A stretch of DNA of 64,000 bases from Patescibacteria group bacterium (GCA_040388985.1 JAZKAU010000002.1:311642-375641), one strand, 5' to 3'; shown: positions 27,004 through 42,903, numbered from the stretch's first letter. The notes: generated by a model from the letters alone, not told the origin. Translations and numbers: made by a program.

Positions 27004-27006
27004 AAT

Positions 27007-28908
27007 ATGTCTTCTTCCTGCGACAACTGCGAAGTAAAGCCGGTAACGGGTCCTGATTGGAGGAAAATCGGTACCGGATATTCAGGCATTGCTACCATGC
27101 TCGGATTCTTACTCTCATACACCAGTCTTTTCCCTCAAGTACAAATGCCCCTTTTCCTCTCTGCAATAGCAGTAGGAGGCATATTCGTAGTTCGGGGTGC
27201 ACTACGGGGACTTACGCGTCAACGATTTCTTAATATTGATTTCCTCGTCGTTATCGCTACCATCGGTGCGCTGTACCTTGGTGAATTCGGGGAAGCGGCA
27301 GCCATTGTATTTTTCTTCTCGCTAGCGGAAGCATTTGAGGAATATGGAATAGCACGCTCTCGAAAAGCCCTTGAGGCACTCGTGGAAAAAAGTCCAAAGT
27401 TTGCAACACTCTCAGACGGAAGCGAGATGGCGGTTGAAAACATTACCGTTGGAACCGTGATCGCGGTTAAGCCCGGGAAGCTGATACCGCTTGATGGAGA
27501 AGTCGTCAAAGGTCAGTCGGCAGTGAATGAGGCTTCAATCACCGGAGAACCGCTACCAAAGGAAAAGACCGAGGGCGACACGGTGTACGCGGGAACGTTG
27601 AACGAAAATGGATACCTTGAAATTCGTGTGACCAAGGAAAGCAAGAATTCTACAATTGCAAAGATTGTAGGACTGGTAGAAGAGGCGCAGAAGTCAAAAA
27701 CAGGAGCAGAGGAATTCATTGATCGCTTTGCAAAATACTACACACCCGGCATCGCGTTCCTCGCGCTCGCCGTGTTTGCCGTCCCCGTACTTTTCCTTGG
27801 TGGCCAGGCTGCGCTATGGCTTGAACGGGCGATAACACTCCTTGTGATCGCATGCCCATGCGCTCTGGTAATTGCTACACCCGTTACGGTTACAGCAGCT
27901 CTCGGCGGCGCATCGCGCAGAGGAGTGCTTATCCGTGGCGGCCGTTTCCTTGAGATGCTTGGAAAGATCCGCGCCATTTCGTTTGATAAGACCGGCACAC
28001 TCACACAAGGAGAACCTCGTGTCGCCGCAGTCATTGCGTTTAATGGGTTTACAGAGCAGCAGGTTCTTGAAGACGCAGCAGGCATTGAGACGTACTCCTC
28101 GCACCCTCTTTCAAAAGCAATCCTCGCATATGCTACTGAGCGCGGGGTAACACCGCATACGATGGAAAAGTACGAGAACGTGAAAGGGAAGGGCGGACAG
28201 GCGGTATGTCTGGTCTGTGATGATACGGAGCATCTTATAGGGAACCTGAAAATGCTCGACACACACAATATAGATACGTCGAGTATTGTAGAAAAAACAA
28301 AAGAGTATGAAGAACAGGGAATGACCATCGTTCTAGTAACGGAGGGTCATACCCCTATGGGGGCACTCGCTATAACAGATACTATCCGCAGTGAATCTTC
28401 CGCCGTGATAGAGCGTCTGCGTGCAATGAAGGTAACCCCAGTTATGCTTACGGGTGACCATCAGCAGGGCGCGGACTATGTTGCCGTACAGGTAGGTATT
28501 ACCGAAGCAAGAGGCGATCTTCTTCCTGAAGACAAAGTGCGCGAGATGCAATCACTTAAAGCGAAGTATGATTCTGTTGCAATGGTCGGAGATGGGGTAA
28601 ACGATGCGCCCTCGCTCGCCATTGCAGACGTTGGTATTGCTATGGGAGCCCGAGGCTCTGATGTTGCAATCGAGACCGCAGATATTGCTCTTATGAATGA
28701 TTCTCTCTCAACGGTTCCTGACATGGTGCGTCTTGGTAGGCGCACACTCTCAACCGTTAAGGTGAATGTATTTCTCGCAATCGCGTCAAAACTCGCGTTC
28801 ATTATCCTTACTATCTTTGGCATATCCAGTCTTGGAATTGCGATAGCCGCAGATACAGGCATTGCAATTCTTGTCACTTTAAATGGCTTACGGTTATTCA
28901 GAGTTTAA
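27007..28908 (+). CDS. heavy-metal translocating P1B-type ATPase (Cd/Zn/Pb or Cu class)
   Basis: N-terminal CDNC, TM CPC motif (IACPCALVIATP), DKTGTLT, TGDHQ, GDGVNDAP. Confidence 0.9.
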   Translation: MSSSCDNCEVKPVTGPDWRKIGTGYSGIATMLGFLLSYTSLFPQVQMPLFLSAIAVGGIFVVRGALRGLTRQRFLNIDFLVVIATIGALYLGEFGEAAAIVFFFSLAEAFEEYGIARSRKALEALVEKSPKFATLSDGSEMAVENITVGTVIAVKPGKLIPLDGEVVKGQSAVNEASITGEPLPKEKTEGDTVYAGTLNENGYLEIRVTKESKNSTIAKIVGLVEEAQKSKTGAEEFIDRFAKYYTPGIAFLALAVFAVPVLFLGGQAALWLERAITLLVIACPCALVIATPVTVTAALGGASRRGVLIRGGRFLEMLGKIRAISFDKTGTLTQGEPRVAAVIAFNGFTEQQVLEDAAGIETYSSHPLSKAILAYATERGVTPHTMEKYENVKGKGGQAVCLVCDDTEHLIGNLKMLDTHNIDTSSIVEKTKEYEEQGMTIVLVTEGHTPMGALAITDTIRSESSAVIERLRAMKVTPVMLTGDHQQGADYVAVQVGITEARGDLLPEDKVREMQSLKAKYDSVAMVGDGVNDAPSLAIADVGIAMGARGSDVAIETADIALMNDSLSTVPDMVRLGRRTLSTVKVNVFLAIASKLAFIILTIFGISSLGIAIAADTGIAILVTLNGLRLFRV

Positions 28909-29067
28909 GCGGTTACTTAAGCCATACTTTAGTCCACACTTCTTCATAAAAGCATCATTGACCACGATTTTACCCTCGTTATACTAGTAGGACTGGTTAG
29001 ATACGGATGTACTCAAGAAAGCCTATTACAGGCTTTTTGTATTATGAAGAAACGCTGAATTTCCTTT

Positions 29068-30165
29068 TTGTTTCCTATTTTACCTTCAAAGTTTTTCTCC
29101 CGTTCTACACGTGCGTCGAACAGGGATACATATAAGCGGTTTGGTTTAGTAGCTGCGATTCCCGCTCTACTTCTTTTTGTCCATATCATCGCACCTAATG
29201 CGATAGACGGTTTCTTTCCGTTCCCTCACAGCGCACATGCGCAGAGCGATAGTATCGGCGGCATCATTCATGACCCAAGCATAGGTTTGCTTAAAGGCGT
29301 TCGTGACTCAAGTGTTACTGACGACAATGAGATGGAAGTCTCAGGAGGAATGGCGCTCATGTCTCATTCTGATCTTTCAGAAGGAAGTGAGGGAGGCGTA
29401 AGCACGCAATCAGCGAAGCCGAAGAAATCAGGCATTTCTCTCTACACTGTCAAAGAAGGAGATTCGCTTTCAGAAATAGCTGAAGAGCATGGAGTTTCAA
29501 GTAATACTATTCTCTGGGCAAACGACATTCGTGATGCAAGTACCATCCGTACTGGAGACGAACTTATTATCCTTCCTGTCTCAGGCGTACAGCATAAGGT
29601 AGCTTCTGGCGAGACTCTACAGACTATAGCGAAGAAGTATGGATCGGATGCATCTGACATCGCACTCTATAACGGCATTGATGAATCAAGTGGTCTTAAG
29701 CAGGGAGCAGAGATAGTGGTTCCCGGCGGAGCGTTCCCTTCAGCTACGAAGAAAGTCGCAAGTACGGCAAACACAAAGAAAGCTGCGGTATCAACAGCAA
29801 AGTCGAGTAGCTCGTCTACTGGCGGGAAGTTTGGGAACCCGCTCCCAGGCAGAGCGATCACACAGGCGAATCACGGATATAATGCAGTAGATATAGATGG
29901 CGAAACAGGAGACCCGATTTACGCTTCGGCTGGCGGTAAGGTCATTATTGCTAAGGGTGGAGGAGGCTACAACGGTGGCTACGGAAATTACATCGTAATT
30001 GAGCATGGGGGAGGAGTTCAGACACTTTACGCTCACATGTCGAGCCTTGCGGTGTCAGGTGGCACGGTTGAAAAGGGTGAGATTATCGGGTATGTAGGTA
30101 GTACCGGAAAATCAACGGGTTCGCATCTGCACTTTGAAGTTCGCGGAGCAACTAATCCGCTTTAA
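29068..30165 (+). CDS. LysM-domain M23 family metallopeptidase (peptidoglycan hydrolase)
   Basis: two LysM repeats (YTVKEGDSLSEIA..., HKVASGETLQTIA...), C-terminal M23 HxxxD/HxH motifs (AVDIDG, YAHMS, GSHLHFEV). Confidence 0.85.
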   Translation: MFPILPSKFFSRSTRASNRDTYKRFGLVAAIPALLLFVHIIAPNAIDGFFPFPHSAHAQSDSIGGIIHDPSIGLLKGVRDSSVTDDNEMEVSGGMALMSHSDLSEGSEGGVSTQSAKPKKSGISLYTVKEGDSLSEIAEEHGVSSNTILWANDIRDASTIRTGDELIILPVSGVQHKVASGETLQTIAKKYGSDASDIALYNGIDESSGLKQGAEIVVPGGAFPSATKKVASTANTKKAAVSTAKSSSSSTGGKFGNPLPGRAITQANHGYNAVDIDGETGDPIYASAGGKVIIAKGGGGYNGGYGNYIVIEHGGGVQTLYAHMSSLAVSGGTVEKGEIIGYVGSTGKSTGSHLHFEVRGATNPL

Positions 30166-30204
30166 GCGAGATTCTCTTGTCTTCCATAGCAGGATAGTAG
30201 TTTC

Positions 30205-30657
30205 CTAGAGCCTCTTGAGAATGCTACTCATCTGATCAATCTCCAGTTGCTGGCTCGCAATGATGTTCTGACAAAGCTGCTTTATCTCTGGATCAGTGAT
30301 TTTCGCTTGCTCACACATCAGTATGGCTCCTGAGTGGTGAGGAATCATAGATTGAAGGAATCCCTTGTCTCCCACAAAAGTCTGATATCGAATCGCAAGA
30401 AATGAAAGTACGAGAACAACGAACCCGATACCAATTATGATCTTGTTCAATTTCTTGTCTTTGTACATCATGCCCATGAGGAGCATCTCAAGAATGAGCA
30501 TAGGCGCAGTCATCATGATTCCCATATAGAGGAAATTGATATTTGGAACCGCGTTCGCAAATACATTTACCATTGCAAACATGAGGACGAACATGGCGAC
30601 TACATGGAGTCCGACCATAAGAGCTAGTTTGCTATAGGAGGCATCTTTCATATTCAT
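30205..30657 (-). CDS. DUF305 family membrane protein (metal-resistance associated)
   Basis: MIPHHSGAILMCEQA matches DUF305 HHxGA-x-M motif; N-terminal TM helices. Confidence 0.6.
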   Translation of the reverse strand: MNMKDASYSKLALMVGLHVVAMFVLMFAMVNVFANAVPNINFLYMGIMMTAPMLILEMLLMGMMYKDKKLNKIIIGIGFVVLVLSFLAIRYQTFVGDKGFLQSMIPHHSGAILMCEQAKITDPEIKQLCQNIIASQQLEIDQMSSILKRL

Positions 30658-30738
30658 AGAAATATTAGCTTATGCGAACTGATAATACGTATAGATATTG
30701 TACCTTTTATCCCTTCTTAATAGGTATAGAATAGAGGT

Positions 30739-31107
30739 ATGACTGCGCAGATAAAGAAACTCCTATCGTGGTCAGCGCTGGCTTTGATAGTAGTGGTTCC
30801 TCTCCTGATGCTTTTCACCATGGCGATGCCCATGGATCATAGTACGGGTGGCTGTCCCTTTATGAAGGGTGAGACTTCAATCTGCCCGATGTCGGTTTTG
30901 GATCACATAACGAGCTGGCAGAGCACATTTACCATTACTCTCGTCGAGATACTCACGTTTGCCCTGCCAATCTTCGCGCTCGCATTGATTTGGCTCATTC
31001 TTCCAAAACCTGAACATCCACCGGGGTACCGAAGACGTTCCTATCCAGTACCGCCTTTACTACAAGAACTCTTCTCAAGCGGTCTCCTCAATCCGAGAGT
31101 TCCATAG
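30739..31107 (+). CDS. small membrane protein with conserved Cys pair (paralog of 25154..25516)
   Basis: see paralog alignment; C-terminal QELFSSGLLNPRVP vs QQLFSQGILNSKAY. Confidence 0.45.
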   Translation: MTAQIKKLLSWSALALIVVVPLLMLFTMAMPMDHSTGGCPFMKGETSICPMSVLDHITSWQSTFTITLVEILTFALPIFALALIWLILPKPEHPPGYRRRSYPVPPLLQELFSSGLLNPRVP

Positions 31108-31146
31108 AAACCCTTTAGTTATCTTTATTTCACTTAACTAAACTCT

Positions 31147-31548
31147 ATGGAAAAGAATGTAATTATTATAGGACTCGTTGCTCTTATTATTGGCGCTGGA
31201 GGGGGTTATGCACTTGCTATGAACAAGGCCCCGGAACCTACAGCAACTACCGGAGGTCATATGATGTCTAACGGTCAGATGATGGGAGGCTCTATGTCAG
31301 GGAATAGTATGCAGGGTGAGATGGACTCGATGATGGCTGGGCTTCAAGGAAAGACTGGAGACGCGTTCGACCAGGCCTTTTTGAGCGAGATGATCATGCA
31401 CCACCAAGGAGCCGTACAAATGGCTGAAGCAGCCCTTCAGAACGCAAAGCATCAGGAGATAAAGGATCTTGCAAAGAACATCATCTCTGCACAGAACACC
31501 GAGATCAAAGAGATGCAAGACTGGCAAAAGTCTTGGTACGGGAACTAA
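31147..31548 (+). CDS. DUF305 family protein with Met-rich (Cu-binding-like) region
   Basis: MIMHHQGAVQMA DUF305 motif; MMSNGQMMGGSMSGNSMQGEMDSMM Met-rich stretch; signal anchor. Confidence 0.65.
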   Translation: MEKNVIIIGLVALIIGAGGGYALAMNKAPEPTATTGGHMMSNGQMMGGSMSGNSMQGEMDSMMAGLQGKTGDAFDQAFLSEMIMHHQGAVQMAEAALQNAKHQEIKDLAKNIISAQNTEIKEMQDWQKSWYGN

Positions 31549-32322
31549 GTGGAGACTGTATGCGTTATGAACCAGACTACTAAACGAACAGCGATCCTCT
31601 ACCGAATGGTGCTACCAGACCATACCTGTCCGTATGGCCTGAAGGCTCGATGGCTTCTAAGGAAGCGCGGGTATGAAATCGATGATCAAATACTTCACAC
31701 CCGTCATGAAGTGGATGCGTTCAAAGCAGAATACTCTGTAGAATCGACACCTCAAATCTTCATTAACGACAAAAGAATTCGTGGGTATGATGACTTGCGT
31801 AAATCGTTAGGCATGAAGGTGCGCGATCCTAAGGGTACGACGTATACGCCCGTTGTTGTAGTGTTTGTTACCACAGCTCTCATGGCTTTGGCAGTGAGCT
31901 ACGCAACATACGGAGACCTGCTTACACTGCAAACGGTTCAGTGGTTCATCGCGCTCTCAATGATGGTACTCGGCATGCTCAAGCTCCAAGACATTGAAAG
32001 CTTCTCCAGTATGTTCCTGAACTATGATCTGCTTGCTCGTCGCTGGGTTCGGTATGGATATATATACCCATATGCAGAACTTGGAGCGGGAGCACTCATG
32101 GTGGCAGGCGCATTGTCTTGGCTATCAATTCCAGTTGCCCTGCTCATTGGAATCATTGGTGCAGTATCTGTATTCAAGGCCGTCTACATCGACAAGCGAG
32201 AACTCAAATGTGCCTGTGTCGGTGGAAACAGTAATGTTCCGCTCGGCTTCCTATCTCTCACTGAGAATCTCATGATGATAGCGATGGCTCTATGGATGCT
32301 GATAATGATTGGAATGCATTAG
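31549..32322 (+). CDS. glutaredoxin-like domain fused to multi-TM (MauE/DoxX-like) membrane domain
   Basis: CPYG active-site motif in N-terminal ~80 aa; 4-5 C-terminal TM helices with Cys pair CACVGG; start could be internal ATG (MNQTTKR). Confidence 0.55.
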   Translation: METVCVMNQTTKRTAILYRMVLPDHTCPYGLKARWLLRKRGYEIDDQILHTRHEVDAFKAEYSVESTPQIFINDKRIRGYDDLRKSLGMKVRDPKGTTYTPVVVVFVTTALMALAVSYATYGDLLTLQTVQWFIALSMMVLGMLKLQDIESFSSMFLNYDLLARRWVRYGYIYPYAELGAGALMVAGALSWLSIPVALLIGIIGAVSVFKAVYIDKRELKCACVGGNSNVPLGFLSLTENLMMIAMALWMLIMIGMH

Positions 32323-32339: not shown

Positions 32340-32373
32340 TATGCAAAAGGCCGCTATATAGCGGCCTTTTGCA
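32340..32373. terminator. bidirectional terminator hairpin (AAAAGGCCGCTATATAGCGGCCTTTT)
   Basis: perfect stem between convergent genes; possible boundary between metal module and satellite-like module. Confidence 0.6.
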
Positions 32374-32384
32374 TTAGGATGCTA

Positions 32385-33707
32385 CTAATTAATCGCCAGA
32401 GTAATTTTCTTGTCATTAATAAGAAGTTTACCCTTTAAACATCCAAGTAATTCCCGCTTTTCTATGTCCGCTCCTTCTCTTAAGAGGTATTTAGCGTAAT
32501 TTCGTATATCTACATCTACTATCTCAATTTTGGTCTTTGTGCCTAGAATAGCTTGCTGGAACTTCTTAAACCTCTCAACCTCAGCTTTTATCTTTTCCTT
32601 AATACCAATCTCGTCGATATCAATGGTATCCATAAGAGCGATGAATTGTTCTATAAGATCCGTCTCATTTATATAGCCTGATTTACAATTCACATCTTTG
32701 CCTTTGCCGCAGCCGTAATAGACGTGGCGGTGAACATTTCCGTTCTTTTGCTTCTTAAATTTCTCGTCAGCCGAGATACTTGAACCGCATAGGCCACACT
32801 CCATAAGACGAGTGAAGGCAAATTCTTTAGTCTCGGAACGGATCACTTGGCTCTTTACTTGTTCCTGAACGAGGTCAAACAGCTCTTTAGAAATAAGGGG
32901 TTCGTGCTTTCCTTGATACCAACGGCCTGAATTCTTCGGGTATTCAAATACTCCGTAGTAGAAGGGATTTTGGAGAAGAATATAAATATTACTCAAACTC
33001 AGGTTCTTGTTCCCGGCGGCTGTCTTAAAATTAAGCTCGAATTTGAGCCAGTTATATACCTTACGTCCGCTCCATTTTTCATATGCTACTTTCTCGAACA
33101 TCTTCCTAATTACCATTGCTCTATCTGGGTCGAGAATGCTCTGACACTTCCTATCCAGTCGCTGTTCTTTCAGATAGCCGGTAGGGGCACGTCCCGGCAG
33201 TAGTCCCATTTCTACTCTCGTCTTTAAACCTCTCTTTACATTAATACTCTTGTTGTCGTTCTCGAGCTTTGCTTGAGAACACAGAATCATCAGGAGGAAC
33301 TTCTCGTTAGGGGAGTTCCTGAAGTGTTGTCCGTAAGTACGAATTTCAAGGAGTAGCTTCTGATCCATCAGATCTACGAGTGTTCCTAAGTCTCCAGCAT
33401 TTCTACTCAAACGGTCAGGTGCCCAAGTTAGTACGGCGTTAAAGCGTCCGCGTCGTATATCTTCGAGTAGTTCTTGATATACAGGTCGTTGTCCTGAATC
33501 CTTTGCTGAATGCGACTCTCTCCGAATATCTACTATCTCTAGATTCTCCCGCTCAGCGATTTGAAGCATTTCCTTAATCTGCGAATCTATGGAAAGAGCT
33601 TGCTTCTCATCGGACTCGGTAGATTTTCGGGCGTATAAGCAGTATCTAATTTTCTCTTCTATAATGACGGGTGATAATCCTATCTGTGAGGTTTCTAAAG
33701 TTTGCAT
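32385..33707 (-). CDS. large serine recombinase (resolvase/invertase N-domain + recombinase domain + zinc ribbon)
   Basis: YARKSTESDEKQ catalytic Ser region, DRLSRN, recombinase domain, CGLCGSS...YYGCGKG zinc ribbon, C-terminal coiled coil. Confidence 0.85.
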   Translation of the reverse strand: MQTLETSQIGLSPVIIEEKIRYCLYARKSTESDEKQALSIDSQIKEMLQIAERENLEIVDIRRESHSAKDSGQRPVYQELLEDIRRGRFNAVLTWAPDRLSRNAGDLGTLVDLMDQKLLLEIRTYGQHFRNSPNEKFLLMILCSQAKLENDNKSINVKRGLKTRVEMGLLPGRAPTGYLKEQRLDRKCQSILDPDRAMVIRKMFEKVAYEKWSGRKVYNWLKFELNFKTAAGNKNLSLSNIYILLQNPFYYGVFEYPKNSGRWYQGKHEPLISKELFDLVQEQVKSQVIRSETKEFAFTRLMECGLCGSSISADEKFKKQKNGNVHRHVYYGCGKGKDVNCKSGYINETDLIEQFIALMDTIDIDEIGIKEKIKAEVERFKKFQQAILGTKTKIEIVDVDIRNYAKYLLREGADIEKRELLGCLKGKLLINDKKITLAIN

Positions 33708-33711
33708 ATAG

Positions 33712-34014
33712 TTATTTCAATTTACTTAATGCTTCGGCACGAAGTCTTCCCATATCTCGGAGTACACCTAAATATACTTTCCGGCTCCTGTCCGTACCTT
33801 GGTGCGTATTGAGCCAGTCGATCAACTCGTCTGGTACGTATGTAGCAAGAGAGCTATAGGAAACTATCAACTCTTCAATCCTTTCAAGGATTGCTCGCTT
33901 TAAATCCTTCTTGGAGTGGGGAAGCAGAGAGATTCTATTCAGATAGGCACTGTCGGCTTCTTTCTTAAAACGATAATGATCTGCGGTATCCAATATTTCG
34001 TCCCTGTCCTCCAC
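33712..34014 (-). CDS. small hypothetical protein (possible RDF/regulator)
   Basis: 100-aa ORF immediately upstream of recombinase on same strand. Confidence 0.3.
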   Translation of the reverse strand: MEDRDEILDTADHYRFKKEADSAYLNRISLLPHSKKDLKRAILERIEELIVSYSSLATYVPDELIDWLNTHQGTDRSRKVYLGVLRDMGRLRAEALSKLK

Positions 34015-34326
34015 CTATTAATTGATGCCAGACTGGTGGCTGGTGCATAGTCTATGCAGAACTAGTCTTTCGTCGCATGGTCGCGAAGGCCTTAGCAAAG
34101 GGTAGGAACTGCGATAATATGAAGAAGTAGTACAGGGCTATGTATTACCTCAATATGGCCTAAACCGAGCAATTGCCCGGCATGGCCGAATAACCGCGAC
34201 CAGCATAGAAAACCCGTCATCAGGGCGCTGGTCGCGTTACCAGGGGAAACTCTGGTATGTCCTTCGGGACTCCTGGTGGCGGGTTTTGTGCTACCCACCA
34301 GAATTACAAATCGCGACCAGCAACAT

Positions 34327-34806
34327 ATGAATGACTCAACCGAGAGTGAGAAATCTGCTCTACAAAAACCTATTAGCGAGCTATGGAAAACCAGTCCTGT
34401 AACTCGAGTTACCACTGTTGTAGTGGTGCTTATACTGATCCTTATAGTTTGGGGTTCTGGAACACCAGCTCCAACATATCAATATCAGTATGTTCCAGAT
34501 ACGAGTTCTCAGCCTGCTGTAAGTACAACGGGAACGTATCAAGAAGTGCTTACGTTCTCTGGCAATGGACCTAAGCGGTCAGAGCCATTTACCATTATAG
34601 GTAGCCGATTCAAGATTACTTATGATTGTAAGGCTATGTATTGCGGCGCGTTCGTATTCAACACAAGCGATCAGATGCCAAGAGCGCTTATGAATAGCCC
34701 TGAGGCAGTAAGCGATGAAACTGTGTTCTACGGTAGCGGCCAATACTACATTGATACCAATATAGTGAATGGAAGTTATACGATGACGGTATACGACTAT
34801 AAATAG
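34327..34806 (+). CDS. membrane-anchored extracellular hypothetical protein
   Basis: single TM (VTTVVVVLILILIVW) then Thr/Tyr-rich beta region; start trimmed to MNDSTESEK. Confidence 0.4.
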   Translation: MNDSTESEKSALQKPISELWKTSPVTRVTTVVVVLILILIVWGSGTPAPTYQYQYVPDTSSQPAVSTTGTYQEVLTFSGNGPKRSEPFTIIGSRFKITYDCKAMYCGAFVFNTSDQMPRALMNSPEAVSDETVFYGSGQYYIDTNIVNGSYTMTVYDYK

Positions 34807-34818
34807 TCTCCAGTTAAT

Positions 34819-36270
34819 TTAAAAGAATCGGGGCACAGCTGGAGGATTGTTGACTGTGTGTAGTACAAGCATCGAAAAGGCATCGGCTAGGTCATCATGC
34901 TTTTCGACACCGAAGTGTACCAGCTGTTGAATTAGCTGTTCCGCGCCTTCTCTTGGGAAAAGGATTGTGCCATTCTTAATTAGATTTGCGGTTAACATGA
35001 GTCGACTGCGCTTGTCTGACCCTGGGTGAATAGTCTCTACTTGCCAAATACCTTCGGTAATAAGCTGCTCGGCCATAGCCCTCTGATACCCAACATCTTC
35101 GATAAGAAATGTGGCTTGTTGTCTATCCTCGTCCATATATGTCTGGTGAAGGATCTTGCAGGTATTTACTGTTTCGGGAAAATCCATTCTCCTGTTTACG
35201 ATCTTAGGCAGGATATATATGCAGTAGTCATTCTCTCGTTCATACAATAGCGCAGGAACCATGGCGGTGTAGTCCGCCGTATCCCTCTTGGATATCGCAA
35301 GATCTACTCCAATATGGAGCTCTGTATGCGTTGTGTAATATTCGTCCAACTGTGTTGATGGAGGAATCGTATCGTAGTACTGAATCCAGGCGCGATCGAT
35401 AACTTGATCTTCGGCAGGAACGATATTTAAGAGATATTCTCTCTGCCAAGCATATTCGTTAGAAGCTTTACGGCGTTCCTCCTCAACATCCTCCATGGTT
35501 GGATATTTGCCTGGCCATAGCACCTGACTTCTGTCGATAAGTGGATAAGACTTAAAAACACCCACCATGCTCTCTGTTTCCACATCTTCTTTAAGTCTCA
35601 TCATGAGTGAATCCTCGTGAAGGAGGTTTCCGATAATGATCATGCGCGTAGTACGGTCTCCGGTCGGTATAACTTCACCCGTTAGCCATTCATAGGTCTT
35701 ATTACGTCCCTCGCGTGTTTTCGTCGAAGCGATATCTTCAAGGTCGTCTCCAATAATAAGATCTGGTCTGTGTTGGTTGTGACGCAAGCCTCGGATGCTT
35801 TGTTCGGAAGAGACGGTTGTGATACGGGCATTGGTTTCAGCAAATACGAGTGAGGAAGCTCCCCATTCGTTATGCTCTTCTTGAAACGGACCAAGATCGT
35901 TCTTAAGGAGTATATTTCCCTCAAGCTCGCGTCGTAGGTTCATCATATGTTGCTTTGCTTGCGCCTGGGTCTGCGCGAGTATTAGCACGAACTTCTTCTG
36001 TGGCTGTCCAAGGATTGCCCAAAGCGGATATGACATAGTGAAGATCGTAGACTTTGCCGACCCACGAAATGCGACTATGAAGAGGTTTCTGATGTTTTCT
36101 TGTTCAGACAGATGAATCAGTTCTCGTTGGAAGGGAGCGGTAGGGTACTTTACATAGTGTGCGAAGTAGAAGTGGAAGAACATGAAGTGGCTTTGCCGAG
36201 TGATTGCTGAGCGAACATTACGGTCACTAAACATTTTCTCGGCAAGTTCTGGTGGCAGATGCTCATTCAT
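34819..36270 (-). CDS. phage terminase large subunit
   Basis: Walker A-like VAFRGSAKST, Walker B LIIGDDLED, C-terminal RNaseH-like nuclease acidic residues; size 483 aa. Confidence 0.8.
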   Translation of the reverse strand: MNEHLPPELAEKMFSDRNVRSAITRQSHFMFFHFYFAHYVKYPTAPFQRELIHLSEQENIRNLFIVAFRGSAKSTIFTMSYPLWAILGQPQKKFVLILAQTQAQAKQHMMNLRRELEGNILLKNDLGPFQEEHNEWGASSLVFAETNARITTVSSEQSIRGLRHNQHRPDLIIGDDLEDIASTKTREGRNKTYEWLTGEVIPTGDRTTRMIIIGNLLHEDSLMMRLKEDVETESMVGVFKSYPLIDRSQVLWPGKYPTMEDVEEERRKASNEYAWQREYLLNIVPAEDQVIDRAWIQYYDTIPPSTQLDEYYTTHTELHIGVDLAISKRDTADYTAMVPALLYERENDYCIYILPKIVNRRMDFPETVNTCKILHQTYMDEDRQQATFLIEDVGYQRAMAEQLITEGIWQVETIHPGSDKRSRLMLTANLIKNGTILFPREGAEQLIQQLVHFGVEKHDDLADAFSMLVLHTVNNPPAVPRFF

Positions 36271-36682
36271 CTTGGTCTTGGATAGGGCTCTCTAAGTTTG
36301 CTGGTTCAGGAAGAGAGAAGGAGGCAAGTCGAAGTGCTTCGCGTACCACTTCTTCTTGTTCAGGAGTAAGTTCTTCCTTTGGTTTCGTAGTCGTCACCTC
36401 CAGACGATCGCGATACTTGGGACTGCGCTTACGGAGCCAGAAGGATATGGCGTTCCAGTTCTTGTCGCGGATCATACTAATGAGCTGGCTTTCGCTCATG
36501 TCGTTGATCAGTTCCTCGCCTTCGCCTAACGCTATGTCCATCGATTTACGGAACTCAGGATCTTCGTTTTTCCAGCGATAGACGCTATTGCGCGATACTC
36601 CAACTTTTTCGCAGGCGACCTGGACGATAGGGACTTTCCGGAGATGATCCAGGAACGCGTCTTTGACCTTATTCTTTTTCAT
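36263..36682 (-). CDS. terminase small subunit-like HTH protein
   Basis: N-terminal HTH (VQVACEKVGVSRNSVYRWKNED), located directly upstream of terminase large subunit. Confidence 0.5.
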   Translation of the reverse strand: MKKNKVKDAFLDHLRKVPIVQVACEKVGVSRNSVYRWKNEDPEFRKSMDIALGEGEELINDMSESQLISMIRDKNWNAISFWLRKRSPKYRDRLEVTTTKPKEELTPEQEEVVREALRLASFSLPEPANLESPIQDQDE

Positions 36683-37958
36683 GCGCGTTTCCGGTTACTT
36701 TTGCTTTGTTTCCCGTAAGCTTTTCGTACCGCTTAATAGCGAGATCGCAGAAGGCAGGCTCAAGTTCTACGGCGTAGACGCGGCGCTTCAACTGCTCGGC
36801 GGCAATCATCGTACTTCCTGAGCCAGAGAAGCTATCGAGAATAATCTCGCCTGGCTTCGTACAGCGACGAATAGCCTTCTCATGAAGCTTAGGGGGCTTC
36901 GAGGTTGCGTGTTCATAATCTTTCCCAGAGAGTCGCTTTACGAGCCACACATCGAGATGATCGAGCGTCTCCTCAATGAGGTTGTTTCCAGTCGTAATCT
37001 CCTTATTGAGTACTTCGTTCAGGTTCTGAATGCTCTTGGCTATATACGGTTTACCTCGCAGTCCATAAACGCAGGGTTCGTAGCATTTATTGAACGCGAC
37101 AGACGGCACCGGATTCTGCGAGTTCTTGAGCCATAGACACACACGCTTATTCGCTATACCGAGTTCGCGGTACAGCTCCTGCATGAGACCGATATAGATC
37201 TGATCGCACCAGTAGAAGACATGCGTATCCGGCTTCGCTACCGAAAGGGCAGCGATCATCGTCTTTGTTATGAATTCCTTATACTCGCTGTCAGTGCGAG
37301 TATCGAGGACGTTTCCTCCATAGTTCTGCTTGCCCCCAATCCCCCCGTTGTAGTCGATATTGATGTTGTATGGTGGATCGCTATAGATCATTGACGCGCG
37401 TTCCTCTCCGAAGAGGTGACCGAGTACCCTTGGGTCAGTTGAACTCCCGCAAATAAGACGATGGCCACCAAGCTGAATGAGGTCTCCAATCTTAGTTTTT
37501 GGCTCCTTGATCTGCTTCAGCTCCTTCTCTTCGTCGAATTCGTCATTCTCTGTCTCCAAGTTCTCCGTCCAGACATTCGAGAGGTCGATGTCGCTAAAGC
37601 CAACATCAGACAGGAAGTCCATCTCGAAGAACTTCAATTTCTCGAAGTCCCATTCTCCGGTGTTGCGGTTAAGGCGAAGGTTCAGTTCCTGTTCCTTCCT
37701 CAGGCTTGGAATCTGGACGTACACGACTGGTACAGTCTTGTGTCCCAATTCCTTAGCGGCACGAAGGCGCATGTGACCACCAATAACGATGTTCTTGCGC
37801 TTCGGTGCACCATTCACGATTACAGGATCTACCAGCTCGAAGCGAGAGATACTCTCTTTAAGCTGGGTAAGCGCCTCCTTGGAGATCTTGCGAGGGTTGT
37901 ACTCGGCAGGCTTTAAGTCTCCGACCGGTACGTACACAATATTTAGTTCTTTGTTCAT
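36669..37958 (-). CDS. ParB-like nuclease domain fused to DNA N6-adenine/N4-cytosine methyltransferase
   Basis: ParB N-domain (IGGHMRLRAAKELG), MTase motif IV DPPY (IYSDPPYNI) and motif I (LDSFSGSGST). Confidence 0.85.
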   Translation of the reverse strand: MNKELNIVYVPVGDLKPAEYNPRKISKEALTQLKESISRFELVDPVIVNGAPKRKNIVIGGHMRLRAAKELGHKTVPVVYVQIPSLRKEQELNLRLNRNTGEWDFEKLKFFEMDFLSDVGFSDIDLSNVWTENLETENDEFDEEKELKQIKEPKTKIGDLIQLGGHRLICGSSTDPRVLGHLFGEERASMIYSDPPYNINIDYNGGIGGKQNYGGNVLDTRTDSEYKEFITKTMIAALSVAKPDTHVFYWCDQIYIGLMQELYRELGIANKRVCLWLKNSQNPVPSVAFNKCYEPCVYGLRGKPYIAKSIQNLNEVLNKEITTGNNLIEETLDHLDVWLVKRLSGKDYEHATSKPPKLHEKAIRRCTKPGEIILDSFSGSGSTMIAAEQLKRRVYAVELEPAFCDLAIKRYEKLTGNKAKVTGNAHEKE

Positions 37959-38124
37959 ATTCCTTTGAAACAGTTATGTTCAATAAGGATGTATGGAAAT
38001 AGAAAAGGCCTATTCCACACACGAAAAGAGAAGAGGTTCAATGCCTCAACTCATTTCTTGCGCGGAATAGGCATGGCCGGGAGGCGATACGCTACTCTAC
38101 TTTTTACTACGCTATATCACTATT

Positions 38125-38532
38125 CTATTCCTCTCGCTTTTTCTTCGCAAGGCCTCGAAGCACTCGCTTACCATTTTTACTGTTCAGGAACTCCACAGTA
38201 TCCTTTCCCGGTCCCACTGGAACGCCTGCACGGTCAAAAGAGAGAAGGACTTTATATCCTTTAGACTCTTGATCCCGTACATAATTCACAAAATCTGGAT
38301 CCTCCTTAAGACGATTGATTGCGTACGCGCGTGAATCCATTAGTGCGAGCAAGTCAATTGGCCCGTAAATGCGACCTGGTTGCCCTGCATCAACTGCTTT
38401 TCGTATTTTATTTCCGACTGAAGGAGTGGCAGTCTTTGCCGCAGTATGGAACGCTCCGTCAGTGATATGAATCGTGACATATTTCCGTCCCTTTTTAAGG
38501 ACGGCGGGATTTAGATCAAGCCGATATTCCAT
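38125..38532 (-). CDS. hypothetical protein (135 aa after start trimming), divergent from CD-NTase gene
   Basis: ORF 38125..38742 trimmed to internal ATG (MEYRLDLNPAV...) to avoid overlap with + strand gene; no motif recognised. Confidence 0.35.
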   Translation of the reverse strand: MEYRLDLNPAVLKKGRKYVTIHITDGAFHTAAKTATPSVGNKIRKAVDAGQPGRIYGPIDLLALMDSRAYAINRLKEDPDFVNYVRDQESKGYKVLLSFDRAGVPVGPGKDTVEFLNSKNGKRVLRGLAKKKREE

Positions 38533-38595: not shown

Positions 38596-39489
38596 ATGTC
38601 TTGGGAAGATACTTTTATTACCTGGTCCGCACCACCCAGCCTCACTGAACGTGAGAAGATGGAAAATGCTGAAACGGCAATACGTAAAGCCGTTGCCGCA
38701 AACACTCGTTTGAGTCAAATGGATGTGTCCATCATCCCGCAAGGTTCTTATCGTTCAAAGACAAATGTAAGATTGGACAGTGACGTCGATATTGCAGTAT
38801 GTCTAAATTCGACGTTCTTCACGCAATATCCTGCTGGTAAAGTACACGAAGATTTTGGAAATAGTAGCTCGGAAGAAATTACTTTTCCTGAATTTCGCGG
38901 TCTAGTACAAGTCGCCCTAGATGACTATTTTGGCTCTGCACAAGTAACGCCAGGAAATAAGGCCTTTGATATCCATTCAAATAATTATCGAGTTGATGCT
39001 GATGTGGTAGCTACATTCGCACATCGCCATTACTTCGAGAACGGTCTATTTATAGAACCAGCAGGAGTAGCATTTCTTACGCGCGACACTTCAAAAAGAA
39101 TTGAGAATTGGCCACATCAAGCCTACGAAAACGGAAAAGATAAACATGATAGAACAGGTCGTCGGCACCGGAAAATGGTTCGCATCCTAAAACGTCTTCG
39201 CAATAAGATGCAGGCAGAAGGTTATGAAGAAGCAAACGACATCTCCTCGTATCTCATTGAAAGCATGGTCTGGAATGCCGCCGACCAGTCTTTTAATCAC
39301 ACAACTTATACTGAAGATGTTCGAGCTGTATTAGCATACTGCTTCAATGAGACCCTGCCTGCGGGAAGCCACGGATCTCTTGTTGAATCGAATGATATTA
39401 AGTACCTCTTCCATGTAACTCAGCCGTGGACGCGCGAACAGGCTCACAAATTCTTTTCTGCCGCATGGAATTATTTAGGCTTCCAATAA
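38596..39489 (+). CDS. cGAS/DncV-like nucleotidyltransferase (CD-NTase, SMODS-type minimal NTase)
   Basis: Pol-beta NTase motif QGSYRSKTNVRLDSDVDIAV (GS...DxD) and downstream DADV; N-terminus WSAPPSLTEREKMENAE resembles clade-E CD-NTases. Confidence 0.75.
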   Translation: MSWEDTFITWSAPPSLTEREKMENAETAIRKAVAANTRLSQMDVSIIPQGSYRSKTNVRLDSDVDIAVCLNSTFFTQYPAGKVHEDFGNSSSEEITFPEFRGLVQVALDDYFGSAQVTPGNKAFDIHSNNYRVDADVVATFAHRHYFENGLFIEPAGVAFLTRDTSKRIENWPHQAYENGKDKHDRTGRRHRKMVRILKRLRNKMQAEGYEEANDISSYLIESMVWNAADQSFNHTTYTEDVRAVLAYCFNETLPAGSHGSLVESNDIKYLFHVTQPWTREQAHKFFSAAWNYLGFQ

Positions 39490-39491: not shown

Positions 39492-40118
39492 ATGGAAAAG
39501 GTAAACGGGAAGGTACAGATGTATGTTCAAATAATTACTTTTCTTTTTGTTTGGATTCTCGTACTTATATTTACGCAACCAAACCAGACTTGGGATTTAA
39601 TAAATGCACTCAAAGAAGTACCAACGGCCATATCTATATATGCTGTCCTAAGTCTTTTATTTGTTAAATGGCTTTGGCGTATTCCAATCCTTCATCCGTG
39701 GTTAGTGAAAATACCTAATCTTAACGGTACATGGCGAGGTGTTTTAAAAAGCGATTGGGTCAATCCTGTAACAGGAAAGAATATTGAGCCAATACCTGTT
39801 CTTCTTACGATTAAGCAAGATTTCTCTAATCTACATTGCGTATTGATGACAAAGGAGTCAACAAGTTACAGTGTTGTCGCAGATATTAATTTTGGACTTG
39901 GGGGAGATACGTCCTGTCTTAGCTACACTTATACAAATCGATCCAAAGCATCAATCCGAGATAGAAGTCCAATACATGACGGCGCCGCAATTCTTAAGAT
40001 TATTAAGAATCCACAGATTTCCTTAGAGGGAGAATACTGGACAAGCAGAAAAACGAAAGGAGATATCAATGTCATTCTAGAATCAAGAAAGATAGTAGAA
40101 AGTTACATAGAAGTGTAA
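39492..40118 (+). CDS. 2-TM membrane effector with C-terminal beta-rich domain (Cap15-like CBASS effector candidate)
   Basis: two TM helices (VQIITFLFVWILVLIF; AISIYAVLSLLFVKWLW) then ~140-aa beta-rich domain; ATG 3 nt after CD-NTase stop. Confidence 0.5.
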   Translation: MEKVNGKVQMYVQIITFLFVWILVLIFTQPNQTWDLINALKEVPTAISIYAVLSLLFVKWLWRIPILHPWLVKIPNLNGTWRGVLKSDWVNPVTGKNIEPIPVLLTIKQDFSNLHCVLMTKESTSYSVVADINFGLGGDTSCLSYTYTNRSKASIRDRSPIHDGAAILKIIKNPQISLEGEYWTSRKTKGDINVILESRKIVESYIEV

Positions 40119-40150
40119 CTTTCTACGTGACACTCAAAACCTCATTCCTG

Positions 40151-40266
40151 TGTCACTTTTGTCACTTTCCTAGGTGCACGAGACGCGTCGTTTTGGATTC
40201 TGAAAACTCACCAAACGGACTAAGCAGGGCTTGGTTCTAGACGGTTCGAACTCGAGACGGCCAGCA
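40151..40266 (+). repeat. ~115-nt structured repeat, copy B (tandem GTCACTTT half-sites, GACGCGTC palindrome, GAGACGGCCAGCA end)
   Basis: ~85% identical to 41839-41954; partial motif also at 24041-24052. Confidence 0.7.
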
Positions 40267-40421
40267 ACGTATGGAAGCCGCCCGGGAGGGCGGTTTTCAC
40301 GTTGCTGCGGGAAGCGAGTGTGGGGCACTCGCGTCTAGGACTCGAAGCTGTTACGAGTATTTCTCAGGAGTCCTCCGAACTGAGAAATCCGCAACGGATA
40401 CTGCTCCGTAGGAGAGAGGCC

Positions 40422-40448
40422 AGTCCCGCAGCCAACTCGTGCTAGGTT
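40422..40448 (+). repeat. right copy of 27-bp direct repeat (att-like)
   Basis: identical to 24006-24032. Confidence 0.8.
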
Positions 40449-40508
40449 CGGACGCACGAGATGCGTAGTCTCGACTTAAGACACACAACTTTACTGTCGT
40501 GGACGTAC

Positions 40509-40775
40509 TTAGCTTATCCCGGCGTCCTCACGCCACCTCTTAAGAGCAAACTGATAATAATCAGGTATCCACTTTCTGTTACAGGTATCGAACAGCTCCC
40601 AGAAAAAATCTTGCGATTCTTTAGTGTGTGGATTTTCTAAATAGCCTCGAAGTTCCTCATCCTTAACTGCTGATAGAGCCTCTTTAGAGGCGGTGCGCAC
40701 AAGTCCATATATCATAGTGAGAGGCCGTGTGTCAGTTGTGAAGTCGTTCCCATCTCTAGAATTAGTAAAGTTCAT
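40509..40775 (-). CDS. hypothetical protein
   Basis: 88-aa ORF overlapping start of downstream gene by 4 nt. Confidence 0.4.
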   Translation of the reverse strand: MNFTNSRDGNDFTTDTRPLTMIYGLVRTASKEALSAVKDEELRGYLENPHTKESQDFFWELFDTCNRKWIPDYYQFALKRWREDAGIS

Positions 40776-41080
40776 GCCTCCGGCATATACGTTGAATACC
40801 CATGATGAAGTCGGCTAATAACTGTTTTGTATCCACCTTCTTTACCGTTAAGCCACTTAGAAACGCGCGCTACCGTGGTCGAGCTTAACCCGGTCTGCTT
40901 TTCAATAACTGCGTAGGAAATATTTTGGGTGAGCATTTGAGCTGCCTGAAGCCTCTTTCCGAATTCCGCGATCTCCTTTTCTGTCATAAGGTCACGCAGA
41001 AAGCGACGAGCTTCATTCTCGCTTTTAAGTGACAGTATTGCTTCCAGTAGCGTCCTGGCCTCCTTGCTGTTCCAGTTCAT
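40772..41080 (-). CDS. TrpR/YerC-like DNA-binding protein
   Basis: LTEKEIAEFGKRLQAAQMLTQNISYAVIEKQTGLSSTTVARVSKWLN matches Trp-repressor-like YerC/YecD family HTH. Confidence 0.6.
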   Translation of the reverse strand: MNWNSKEARTLLEAILSLKSENEARRFLRDLMTEKEIAEFGKRLQAAQMLTQNISYAVIEKQTGLSSTTVARVSKWLNGKEGGYKTVISRLHHGYSTYMPEA

Positions 41081-41276
41081 ATAACTACTTTATCAGAGTG
41101 CAGTACTTTAGTCAAGTAAAGTCATATTAGTGAGATTTCTTTGTTATTCAAAAGTATCTTACTTCTCAAACATCCAACTCTCGGTATTAAATAGAGAACC
41201 GCCACCCAAGAAAGGCAGGCTGGTGACAGTCCTCTATCCTTTCCTAAGATGGCGGTCAATCAGCGAAGACGCTTGT

Positions 41277-41750
41277 CTAGACCTGTTCTTTCGAAGCGCG
41301 CATCGCGTTCCGCAACTGGTGAGCAACCTCGATGATCGTCCTGCCCTTCGGCGGCTTGAGGATAGTGACGCTGTCGTCGCCGTTGCGGCGAACCACGTAT
41401 TTCACCTTTCTGCCGTCGATATGTTCGCGATCGTTCCAGAGGATCCGATTGAGCATGTACTCATCCGGATCGTGTTGCCCCGGACCTTCGAGATGTTTGA
41501 CGTCAATCCAGTCCTGAGTCCGATCGATGACAAGGTAGAGACCATACGGAGCAGGCTCCTCGAGCTCGTTTTCGAGCTCCTTTACCTTGATGACATCTCC
41601 CGGCCGGTAGTGGCTGAAAATTGCCCACAGCCAAGGGAAATCCTCGTACATCCGCTGAGTCGCGTGGCGATCACCAAACAACATATTAGCCTTCGCTTTC
41701 TGAGGCATTCCGCCTCTTTGAGTCCATTCCGGACGCTGAAACACCGACAC
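41277..41750 (-). CDS. hypothetical protein
   Basis: protein-like composition; preferred over overlapping + strand ORF 41130..41885 which is low-complexity. Confidence 0.45.
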   Translation of the reverse strand: MSVFQRPEWTQRGGMPQKAKANMLFGDRHATQRMYEDFPWLWAIFSHYRPGDVIKVKELENELEEPAPYGLYLVIDRTQDWIDVKHLEGPGQHDPDEYMLNRILWNDREHIDGRKVKYVVRRNGDDSVTILKPPKGRTIIEVAHQLRNAMRASKEQV

Positions 41751-41838
41751 AAGAGTCGGTACTTATGGAATACTACTAAAGTTATAATACGTCAAGTTTT
41801 AGCCTTGCTATGGCTCCAACATCCTTCCACGCAAGGAC

Positions 41839-41954
41839 TGTCACTTTTGTCACTTTTTGAAGCGCACGAGACGCGTCGTTTTTGACTCTGAAAATTCACC
41901 AAACGGACTAAGCGGGGCTTAGCCGACTACGGTTCTAACACGAGACGGCCAGCA
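41839..41954 (+). repeat. ~115-nt structured repeat, copy C
   Basis: aligned to 40151-40266; lacks the following tRNA-3' repeat. Confidence 0.7.
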
Positions 41955-42145
41955 CTCTAGGATTTTGAGAGTATATTTCTTCAATATCTGTTGCGTTTCC
42001 TTATTGGTTTCTAGCTCTAATCTTGCAGAAAGTGTGCGAGCTTCTTCCGCGACATTTTCAATGGGTATGAGGAGGTTATCTAGTGAAATATTCGGTTTTT
42101 ATGGAATGAGTTTATGATTCTAACCTAATATGGAAGTCTCAGATA

Positions 42146-42724
42146 TTAAGTAAACGAAATCTGTTCCTCAAATGGTTTTGTTCCGTCAATTACAATGTCA
42201 GCGTGCGCTTTAGGGTTGTCGCGCCGTATATACGTTTCTTCCTCCTCAAACCAGTCTTCCCACATTGCAGAAAGTTCGTCCTGCGTTTTACCAGTGCCGC
42301 TGTCTCTCGCAAGGCCACGACGTAAACATATCTCTTTTGGAGTATCCACGAATATGCTCAAGCTGATGTAGTCCCTGAACTCCTCACGTGATGAGCTCAC
42401 TCCTTCAAGTACCATTATCGGGGAAACAGGTTGGTCTACCACTGGATCAGGGTAGTGGTTCTCCCACCATTTTGACCGAGGATAGTTGAGCGTTCTCGCT
42501 CCATTCTTGATGGGAGTAAATACTCGCTCTATAACCAATGACCACCAATCCAAAGGGTTATCCCAGCTTGCGAAATCGTCAGTTTGGATTAGCTCGGCAT
42601 CGAGCTTCTCCGCAAGCCATTTCGCTAGAGTAGATTTACCAGAACCGCCGTGTCCATCCACAGCGATAAAGAGCGTTTGTCCCACCTTGGGCTTCTTGGT
42701 AGCTATCAGCTCTCGTAGGTTCAT
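42146..42724 (-). CDS. P-loop nucleoside/nucleotide kinase (uridine-kinase-like)
   Basis: IAVDGHGGSGKSTLAKWL Walker A; 192 aa. Confidence 0.6.
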   Translation of the reverse strand: MNLRELIATKKPKVGQTLFIAVDGHGGSGKSTLAKWLAEKLDAELIQTDDFASWDNPLDWWSLVIERVFTPIKNGARTLNYPRSKWWENHYPDPVVDQPVSPIMVLEGVSSSREEFRDYISLSIFVDTPKEICLRRGLARDSGTGKTQDELSAMWEDWFEEEETYIRRDNPKAHADIVIDGTKPFEEQISFT

Positions 42725-42903
42725 AAAACTAGTTTACACCGTTGCAAGCAGTTCAGACGAGAGGATTTCATAGCCAAACTCCGATTTGCCAGCCAAAAGA
42801 ACGGTTCTAACTTCGTCTAATGCCTGCAGCAACGAAATGAGCTCTTAGATAATAGGTTTTACGAGGAGGAGTTTAAGACGTTCGAGCCTGATACACTTTA
42901 GTA

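Follow-up and report, generated by a model that had tools for sequence, protein, structure and literature searches.

A tRNA-adjacent integrative element of Patescibacteria that carries a phage terminase and a LOOT RNA: a candidate helper-dependent satellite

Introduction

The core components of the phage-inducible chromosomal islands (PICIs) have been listed (PMC10085698); classical satellites replicate themselves, and tyrosine integrases are typical of satellites (PMC10690885). Here we compare with these systems an element found in 64 kb of DNA from a Patescibacteria metagenome-assembled genome (MAG), JAZKAU010000002.1:311642-375641; this whole stretch is called the window below. The element encodes both subunits of a phage terminase, a DNA methyltransferase and a large serine recombinase (SR). 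In Patescibacteria, the Candidate Phyla Radiation (CPR), genomes are tiny, only a few mobile elements have been recognised and only a few phages are known; gene exchange among these bacteria is little understood. The explanation that we favour, at a probability of about 0.55, is that these genes make up the conserved core of a site-specific integrative element, ~16 kb long, that Patescibacteria carry; that it belongs to a large and previously uncatalogued family; and that it is a helper-dependent 'terminase-only' satellite bearing a LOOT RNA that acts as a cis-switch. A full-text literature search of incomplete coverage gave no published description of such an element.

A terminase operon joined to a serine recombinase

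The core consists of the following features, listed by position in the window.

32341-32374, no strand: perfect 34-nt palindromic terminator hairpin, 3' of the SR gene
32385-33707, minus strand: SR (integrase); Pfam Resolvase 2.5e-21, Recombinase 3.7e-14, Zn_ribbon_recom 8.3e-07
33712-34014, minus strand: open reading frame (ORF) of 100 amino acids (o100), stopping 4 nt ahead of the SR start, without family match
34819-36270, minus strand: TerL, terminase large subunit; phrog_38, 3.8e-80
36263-36682, minus strand: TerS-like helix-turn-helix (HTH) protein; phrog_4044, 7.7e-13; phrog_309, 4.5e-09; 8-nt overlap with TerL
36669-37958, minus strand: ParB_N + N6_N4_Mtase DNA methyltransferase fusion (ParB-MTase); phrog_498, 5.1e-92; 14-nt overlap with TerS
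38125-38532, minus strand: conserved ORF of 135 amino acids, the operon's first gene; family c5, in 27 loci

An initial inspection of the DNA alone (hereafter the sequence-only reading) had named the SR, TerL, a TerS-like protein and the ParB-MTase, and searches with Pfam, PHROG and PADLOC bear these assignments out. All three Pfam domains of the SR exceed their own cut-offs, which identifies it as a large serine recombinase; it is also assigned to the PHROG integrase family phrog_95 (2e-62), and the catalytic-serine motif YARKST is readable in its translation. The small ORF beside it, o100, was missed by one gene caller, and a homologue 82% identical occupies the same place in locus L005 (L numbers are our handles for compared loci and contigs); as a guess, o100 could be a recombination directionality factor or a regulator. 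The core forms one operon on the minus strand, with the genes for the 135-aa protein, ParB-MTase, TerS and TerL and then that for the SR. The 135-aa protein has 73 homologues, every one unnamed and from CPR; its AlphaFold2 (AF2) model, with a predicted local distance difference test score (pLDDT) of 86.9, gave no fold match in PDB or BFVD.

The sequence-only reading had also reported that structural genes were lacking, and profile searches agree. Among the small ORFs at 33712-34806 (33712-34014 and 34327-34806) and at 38125-38532, none matched a portal, capsid, tail or lysis family in Pfam or PHROG, and the same databases, searched with every ORF from 23.3 to 47.8 kb, gave no structural, lysis or replication match. 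Nor did any gene of the element match a capsid-morphogenesis (size-redirection) gene, although the 135-aa protein, being without a known fold, could have any role.

The operon recurs widely. Relatives of TerL number more than 4,500, the best being 57-75% identical and nearly all from Patescibacteria, and a pattern-limited scan of GTDB contigs, one genome per species, gave 221 matches among 185,579 species genomes, so that at least 221 species-level genomes are represented. Synteny was assessed by tblastn in 80 genome loci that were fetched: ParB-MTase was found in 76, TerS in 79 and the SR in 58, always co-directional. The recurrent order is 135-aa protein, ParB-MTase, TerS, TerL, a gap and then the SR, with a TerL-to-SR spacing of either ~100-150 bp or 0.7-8 kb. 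Clustering of 1,624 crude ORFs, taken from the window and 88 other loci, yielded six recurring families, namely TerL (89 loci), ParB-MTase (84), TerS (82), SR (63), an HTH + Peptidase_S24 protein (29) and the 135-aa protein (27); all remaining ORF families were confined to 13 loci or fewer each. The HTH + Peptidase_S24 protein, a LexA/CI-like repressor, is transcribed divergently from the operon in the 29 relatives that have it. Across the family, the Walker A (RGSxKST), Walker B (DDxE) and nuclease motifs of TerL are invariant. Identities are mosaic: compared with L004, ParB-MTase is 98% identical but TerL only 72%, and the SR is 92% identical to that of L005, which indicates that modules are exchanged between elements.

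Two variants of the arrangement were seen. A second, shorter methyltransferase gene, which the window does not have, stands between ParB-MTase and TerS in ~20 genome loci (L001-L003, L006-L008, L010, L011, L014, L017 and others). In a sub-lineage from IMG/VR (L097, L099, L100, L101, L102, L110, L119), a tandem pair of TerL genes, each ~48-50% identical to the window's TerL, precedes the SR.

The operon's phage ancestry is visible in more distant relatives. The best TerL from a sequenced phage is ~25-27% identical. A profile scan of IMG/VR gave 47 loci. Among IMG/VR contigs, the ParB-MTase-TerS-TerL-SR cassette persists down to ~45% TerL identity; in L121-L123, whose TerLs are 38-44% identical, genes for portal, protease/scaffold and major head protein (MCP) directly follow TerL. 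The portals of these relatives belong to phrog_2662 (4e-96 and 7e-113), and in the phages L122 and L123 a ParB-like gene lies upstream of TerS-TerL. Portal and capsid genes accompanied TerLs of at most 44% identity and no others, and when the portal, protease and MCP of L121-L123 were used as tblastn queries, no relative was found in the 64 kb window or in ~115 cassette loci (1.97 Mb in total). Because portal-bearing TerL relatives exist and the cassette loci have no virion gene, the cassette is a phage morphogenesis module's packaging end in which a recombinase stands in the portal's place. The cassette-bearing IMG/VR contigs are fragments, and those of ~7 kb proved to be without terminal repeats in a test for circularity.

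Integration beside tRNA genes

GC content is 41-51% across ~23-47 kb versus 52-60% in the flanks, and the low-GC stretch begins at a tRNA gene. The ends of the element are marked by the following features.

23945-24018, plus strand: tRNA-Gln(CTG), called by ARAGORN and Rfam, with its 3' end pointing into the element
24006-24052, plus strand: left junction, a 27-nt stretch (tRNA-Gln 3' end + 14 nt), then the 12-nt core CGAGACGCGTCG at 24041-24052
40095-40126, no strand: conserved inverted repeat GTTACA-n6-TGTAAC (GTAGAAAGTTACACTTCTATGTAACTTTCTAC here; consensus ttaca......tgtaac)
40151-40275, plus strand: terminal region R, with TGTCACTTTTGTCACTTT at 40151-40168, the core CGAGACGCGTCG at 40179-40190 and a tail resembling a tRNA 3' end
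40422-40448, plus strand: alternative right boundary, an exact 27-nt duplicate of the tRNA-Gln 3' end and flank
40449-41955, no strand: probable remnant of a second, older element, with an 88-aa ORF, a TrpR-like regulator, a 157-aa ORF and a second copy of R at 41839-41955 (core at 41867)

A tRNA gene occurs in the same position and orientation, beyond the SR, in at least 18 related loci, where it is tRNA-Ser (~10 loci), tRNA-Gln (4), tRNA-Trp, tRNA-Glu or tRNA-Asp. Within the window, the core CGAGACGCGTCG is found exactly at 24041, 40179 and 41867, and the 27-nt repeat exactly at 24006 and 40422 (blastn E = 2e-07). Nucleotide similarity to L005 falls into three blocks, the tRNA-Gln region, the SR-o100-LOOT block and 40113-40271, and at the left end it stops just past the core.

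The right end is conserved across the family as well. Its order is constant, the inverted repeat being followed by R and then by a GCACGAG-type core; the inverted repeat lies ~20 nt ahead of the TGTCAC repeats in most of 44 sites. The 18-mer TGTCACTTTTGTCACTTT is present with 0-2 mismatches in 42 loci and exactly in 29 of the 44 sites, in constant relative orientation and at a position beyond the operon start and any cargo. Both ends were captured in 13 locus/end combinations, each with a matching 8-14 bp repeat and with spans of 11.0-18.3 kb; the repeat lies 12-23 nt past the tRNA (65 nt in L018) and recurs beside the TGTCAC repeats. These end repeats differ by lineage (GCACGAGG, GCACGAGATAC, CGAGACGCCT, CTCGACAAGGGTC, CACGAGACGCGTCG) but agree within each locus.

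The window's element therefore spans ~24.04 kb to either 40.19 kb (core repeat) or 40.45 kb (27-nt repeat), about 16 kb. With these boundaries, the genes for a CDF transporter, DsbB, DsbA, a P-type ATPase, a LysM-M23 peptidase and DUF305 proteins become cargo, as does the cyclic-oligonucleotide-based antiphage signalling system (CBASS), and the SR becomes internal. The sequence-only reading had taken 32385-38000 as the whole module and the SR as its flank; neither holds, as that interval is only the core of the element (~24.0 kb to ~40.2-40.45 kb), inside which the SR sits. The segment at 40.45-41.96 kb, which carries TrpR, is probably what is left of an older element, as suggested by its second copy of R.

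Several further observations concern these ends. Neither R nor the spacer at 40276-40421 matched an Rfam family; R might be a displaced tRNA 3' half, a piece of tmRNA or a split tRNA-like gene. The spacer, between R and the tRNA-end repeat, contains strong hairpins, such as CAGCAACGT...ACGTTGCTG around GCCGCCCGGGAGGGCGGTTTT, and is closed by a tRNA-like acceptor 3' end. L051 and L062 hold the same element with identical ends and an identical span of 16,186 bp, abutting tRNA-Ser in one and tRNA-Asp in the other; their junction falls exactly at the tRNA 3' end, which hints at a crossover at the tRNA end or at a deleted tRNA. A scan of IMG/VR for TGTCACTTTTGTCACTTT recovered only two already-known cassette contigs and unrelated 9-nt tandem iterons. 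The latter, arrays of TGTCACTTT, occur in unrelated viral contigs from IMG/VR (L129-L147), giant-virus MAGs included, and are inverted in L137 and L147; the same 9-mer unit builds the element's terminal motif, and it may be a shared site for a DNA-binding protein.

A LOOT RNA between terminase and recombinase

The gap between TerL and the SR is occupied, on the opposite strand, by an RNA and the gene behind it.

34157-34287, plus strand: LOOT RNA with pseudoknot tail (RF03000 match 34157-34271; tail 34271-34287)
34288-34335, plus strand: expression-platform-like spacer, with CCACCAG (a degenerate copy of the loop strand), the duplicate CGCGACCAGCA of the P2 5' strand at 34312-34322 and the ATG at 34327
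34327-34806, plus strand: 159-aa protein, predicted to be LOOT-controlled, with an N-terminal transmembrane helix, a linker and a beta-sandwich domain; family c6

The LOOT motif, reportedly described by Weinberg et al. in 2017, is mentioned only in passing in the literature that we found. The window's copy scores 69.5 bits against a gathering score of 46.4 and covers model positions 1-121 of 121 (Rfam); with a purpose-built covariance model (CM) it scores 97.5 bits. By CM, LOOT is present in 33 of the 80 loci. Nearly all of these copies lie between TerL and the SR, are read in the direction opposite to TerL and precede, by 40-90 nt, an ORF of their own orientation; ~30 of 35 LOOT copies hold this leader position. 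L007 (12152, 20393) and L017 (12981, 15951) have two LOOT RNAs each, of differing subtypes and each before its own ORF. Matches to a loose LOOT-core pattern in IMG/VR were discarded, as all 80 listed were chance matches by CM.

Stem P2 pairs 34195-34204 with 34227-34236, and its apical loop (34209-34225) pairs with the tail (34271-34287) just 3' of the Rfam model, forming 17 pairs including G-U. In a 34-sequence alignment, 12 of the 17 pairs of this loop-tail helix (helix 4) were changed on both sides, with 88.5% of cells paired; overall covariation was 0.50, compared with 0.20 for shuffles and at most 0.17 for slid controls, with 85% of cells paired. The sequence-only reading had seen, at 34030-34326, three copies of a motif and CTGGTGG/CCACCAG inverted repeats, and had taken them for operator sites. 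The repeats are there: CGCGACCAGC has exactly three copies (34195 plus, 34227 minus, 34312 plus) within 127 bp and none elsewhere in the window, and CTGGTGG lies at 34273 and CCACCAG at 34296-34302. Their identity is different. Two of the CGCGACCAGC copies are the two strands of P2, CTGGTGG is part of the 3' strand of the covarying loop-tail pseudoknot, and the third CGCGACCAGC copy (34312-34321), a duplicate of a P2 strand, ends 4 nt ahead of the ATG (34327).

This duplication is not peculiar to the window. Of 35 LOOT loci, 13 repeat 9-14 nt of their own P2 5' strand exactly, with the copy ending 1-7 nt ahead of the ATG, compared with 14 of 1186 (1.2%) in cross-locus controls; the copy's sequence is different in every locus and matches the P2 of that locus. 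The minimum free energy (MFE) fold of 34155-34340 is an alternative structure (-71.9 kcal/mol, z = -4.4), in which the P2 3' strand pairs with the duplicate, CUGGUGG with CCACCAG, and the AUG with the P2 loop, so that the start codon is sequestered. The LOOT fold (P2 plus pseudoknot) and this start-codon-sequestering fold are predicted to be mutually exclusive; on these modelled structures, the most likely role of LOOT is to switch translation of the downstream gene in cis, in the manner of a riboswitch.

The beta-sandwich domain of the 159-aa protein (AF2 pLDDT ~98 for residues 71-158) gave weak matches to PPC, collagen-binding and CBM-like folds. The protein has homologues, and in other loci its slot is filled by a membrane-anchored SNase. 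LOOT and the beta-sandwich gene form an oppositely oriented cargo unit in the TerL-SR gap.

Cargo genes and neighbouring sequence

The remaining cargo of the window's element lies on both sides of the core.

24099-32322, no strand: metal/redox cargo comprising a CDF cation-efflux transporter, DsbB, DsbA/thioredoxin, a P-type ATPase, a LysM-M23 peptidase, two DUF305 proteins and a glutaredoxin-MauE protein (Pfam)
38596-39489, plus strand: CD-NTase; PADLOC cyclase, 2.8e-114
39492-40118, plus strand: Cap15 effector with two transmembrane helices; PADLOC 3.5e-72; Pfam Cap15_CD_rec 3.5e-19

The adjacent cyclase and Cap15-type effector identify a type I CBASS, as the sequence-only reading had proposed for the distal end, and CBASS is placed alike in L079. 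Other recurrent cargo includes ThsB-type TIR proteins, type I restriction-modification (R-M) systems, reverse transcriptases (RTs) and membrane-anchored SNase nucleases, and a heavy-metal P-type ATPase lies near the cassette in 12 loci, the window included. An RT gene (RVT_1, 4.2e-22) stands between TerL and the SR in L034 (14213-15265), L081 (4423-5481), L082 (11375-12490) and six further loci.

To the right of the element, still in low-GC DNA, a cyclodipeptide synthase gene (Pfam CDPS, 2.5e-14) at 44517-45401 is accompanied (42146-46464) by genes for a uridine-kinase-like P-loop protein, an alpha/beta hydrolase, an asparaginase-like protein and a DUF5946 protein; together they may form a small CPR gene cluster for a natural product. 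A homologue of the uridine-kinase-like protein, 63% identical, directly follows the SR in L028. On the left, a free-standing LAGLIDADG-like ORF (PF14528, 3.7e-07; 23272-23940) ends 5 nt ahead of tRNA-Gln, and its 3' end is kept in L005. Self-BLAST also revealed, outside the element, a 76-nt direct repeat (86% identical; 58732-58807 and 59527-59602) and long perfect or near-perfect palindromes at 23186-23225 and 22627-22673.

Discussion

Comparative sequence analysis establishes a conserved, mobile, tRNA-adjacent element that carries a phage terminase with intact motifs, a methyltransferase and an SR. A helper-dependent satellite is the best reading of this element, although we infer it rather than observe it. 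In such a satellite, induction would lead the recombinase to excise the element, TerS would recognise the element's own DNA, and TerL would pump that DNA into procapsids of a co-resident helper phage with a compatible portal, the ParB-MTase having methylated it before packaging. Relatives that bear the S24 repressor might be under SOS-type control.

Several points weigh against this reading or narrow it. Both packaging and the helper phage are presumed. Scans of metagenome contigs for an empty site (attB), of Gln type and of Ser type, gave 0 matches, as did a scan of IMG/VR for the circle junction (attP), and the two repeats imply differing right ends for the crossover. The cassette-bearing IMG/VR contigs were probably called viral owing to TerL and are no proof of encapsidation. 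The window's copy of the element is missing the LexA-like repressor and, unlike classical satellites, the island is without a replication gene. As to LOOT, Rfam types it as 'sRNA', and with the duplicated strand in only 13 of 35 copies the cis-switch may apply to a subset only.

Other explanations have to account for the same genes. A self-sufficient island or domesticated module, which we consider unlikely, would use the terminase, with no foreign helper, for packaging into particles encoded elsewhere in the same genome in the manner of gene transfer agents, for lateral-transduction-like headful packaging of adjacent chromosome, or for processing its own DNA. Such a role would fit the lack of any replication module or capsid-remodelling gene among our matches and the very high conservation of TerL across CPR classes; the variable cargo adjoins the cassette and would be mobilised by such packaging. 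Yet the spread is patchy (221 of 185,579 species genomes), the flanks vary, modules are exchanged and the ends are att-like, a combination that points to a selfish mobile element rather than a host function; moreover, no structural genes lie within ±10 kb in ~115 loci or across the window, and the nearest TerL relatives belong to ordinary phages. It is less probable again that this is a defence island whose TerS and TerL, together with the ParB-MTase, sabotage or compete for an invading phage's procapsids and packaging, the recombinase serving only to move it. Defence cargo is indeed carried (CBASS here; ThsB-TIR, type I R-M and RT elsewhere), and known satellites interfere with helper packaging (PMC10690885), but no PADLOC model matches TerL, TerS, the 135-aa protein or the SR, and intact motifs for nuclease and ATPase activity are in keeping with genuine packaging. 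Interference and self-transfer are in any case compatible, which makes this proposal largely a sub-case of the satellite model. The idea that a dead prophage left its packaging end beside its integrase is effectively refuted. It could appeal to the ParB-like ... TerS-TerL order, which is that of the left end of the L122/L123 morphogenesis module, but the same truncated set, with the SR exactly in the portal's place, occurs in at least 221 species, with overlapping genes that suggest translational coupling, invariant catalytic residues and conserved ends. Independent decay would not produce a recurrent truncated set with conserved ends; the preference of the sequence-only reading for a satellite over a degraded prophage is thus upheld by a conserved and mobile gene set that is under selection and occurs in hundreds of genomes.

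The operator interpretation of the repeats at 34030-34326, as binding sites for a repressor of divergent promoters, now seems very improbable. The region does lie between divergent genes (o100/SR versus the 159-aa ORF), and the LOOT promoter must be close by. The repeats nevertheless coincide with helices of a full-length Rfam match whose loop-tail helix covaries, GU pairs included, and whose stems P3 and P4 are capped by GNRA and UUCG tetraloops. Their sequence is wholly different from locus to locus while always matching the locus's own P2 stem, which indicates RNA pairing and not a conserved DNA-binding specificity. A fourth, upstream copy of the 9-mer, at 34078, was considered as a functional repeat and set aside, as it is not conserved.

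The conserved element, readily recognisable and with defined ends, is present in hundreds of species. If it is indeed a helper-dependent satellite, it would represent a major route of gene flow in CPR/Patescibacteria, carrying CBASS, Thoeris-like, R-M, RT and metal-resistance cargo. It would also give a handle for finding CPR phages, as any helper must have a portal compatible with this TerL, and it would extend the range of phage satellites to one in which the whole terminase is kept and nothing else, with no replicase of its own. For the orphan LOOT RNA, the element provides a genomic home, membrane-anchored or secreted proteins as a class of targets, and a mechanism of switching that can be tested. 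A broader proposal, which we offer tentatively and hold at somewhat less than even odds, is that minimal 'terminase-only' satellites of this kind (SR, TerS, TerL, ParB-MTase and the 135-aa protein, with no replicase or virion gene), widespread and tRNA-adjacent, shuttle defence and metal-resistance genes among ultra-small symbiotic bacteria, with LOOT as their dedicated, riboswitch-like control over a surface protein or a secreted nuclease.

Comparison with described satellites and phages

The satellite-like character claimed by the sequence-only reading stands, but membership of the PICIs does not, given the lack of a primase/replicase, an AlpA/Stl-type regulator and a capsid-remodelling gene and the presence of a serine recombinase. 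Like PICIs, for example the Staphylococcus aureus pathogenicity islands (SaPIs), the island is site-specific, falls in the range of ~10-18 kb, has its own small terminase (phrog_4044, 7.7e-13) and defence-bearing cargo and is free of structural and lysis genes; many of its relatives also have a repressor divergent from the operon. It has an integrase, as PICIs do, but a large serine recombinase. The alpA/merR/stl regulation module of PICIs was not found in the window's element, relatives having an S24/LexA-like repressor instead; as to the PICI primase-replicase, ORFs at 24.0-40.4 kb showed no replication domain and no such family recurs in the 88 loci. Unlike PICIs, the island also encodes TerL and a ParB-MTase, and its host phylum is Patescibacteria.

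Capsid-forming PICIs (cfPICIs) resemble the island in encoding both TerS and TerL of phage origin, and they need a helper to supply the remaining virion parts. They also encode capsid, portal, protease, head-tail adaptor/connector and usually HNH proteins, however, none of which was found in the island by PHROG, Pfam or tblastn; the island has two of the eleven cfPICI components, TerS and TerL (PMC10085698). The Streptomyces satellites MulchRoom and MiniFlayer are similar in keeping packaging genes and having no recognisable replicase (PMC10690885), but they carry portal, major capsid, scaffold and adaptor genes, one of them is without an integrase, and they have no sequence kinship to the island.

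The packaging modules of tailed phages (L122, L123) share the ParB-like ... TerS-TerL order and a TerL 38-44% identical; there, TerL is followed by portal, protease and MCP, whereas in the island it is followed by the serine recombinase, with or without the LOOT cargo unit. A tailed prophage, intact or degraded, differs in its terminase-adjacent portal, capsid, tail or lysis genes, which are absent from the window and from ~115 related loci. The LOOT RNA agrees with the Rfam family (RF03000) in its full-length match above the gathering score and its covarying helices; compared with the Rfam entry, it is tied here to one mobile-element family, serves as the 5' leader of surface-protein or nuclease genes and has a 3' pseudoknot tail. 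Together, these comparisons describe an island that appears to work like a satellite but that fits no described satellite family.

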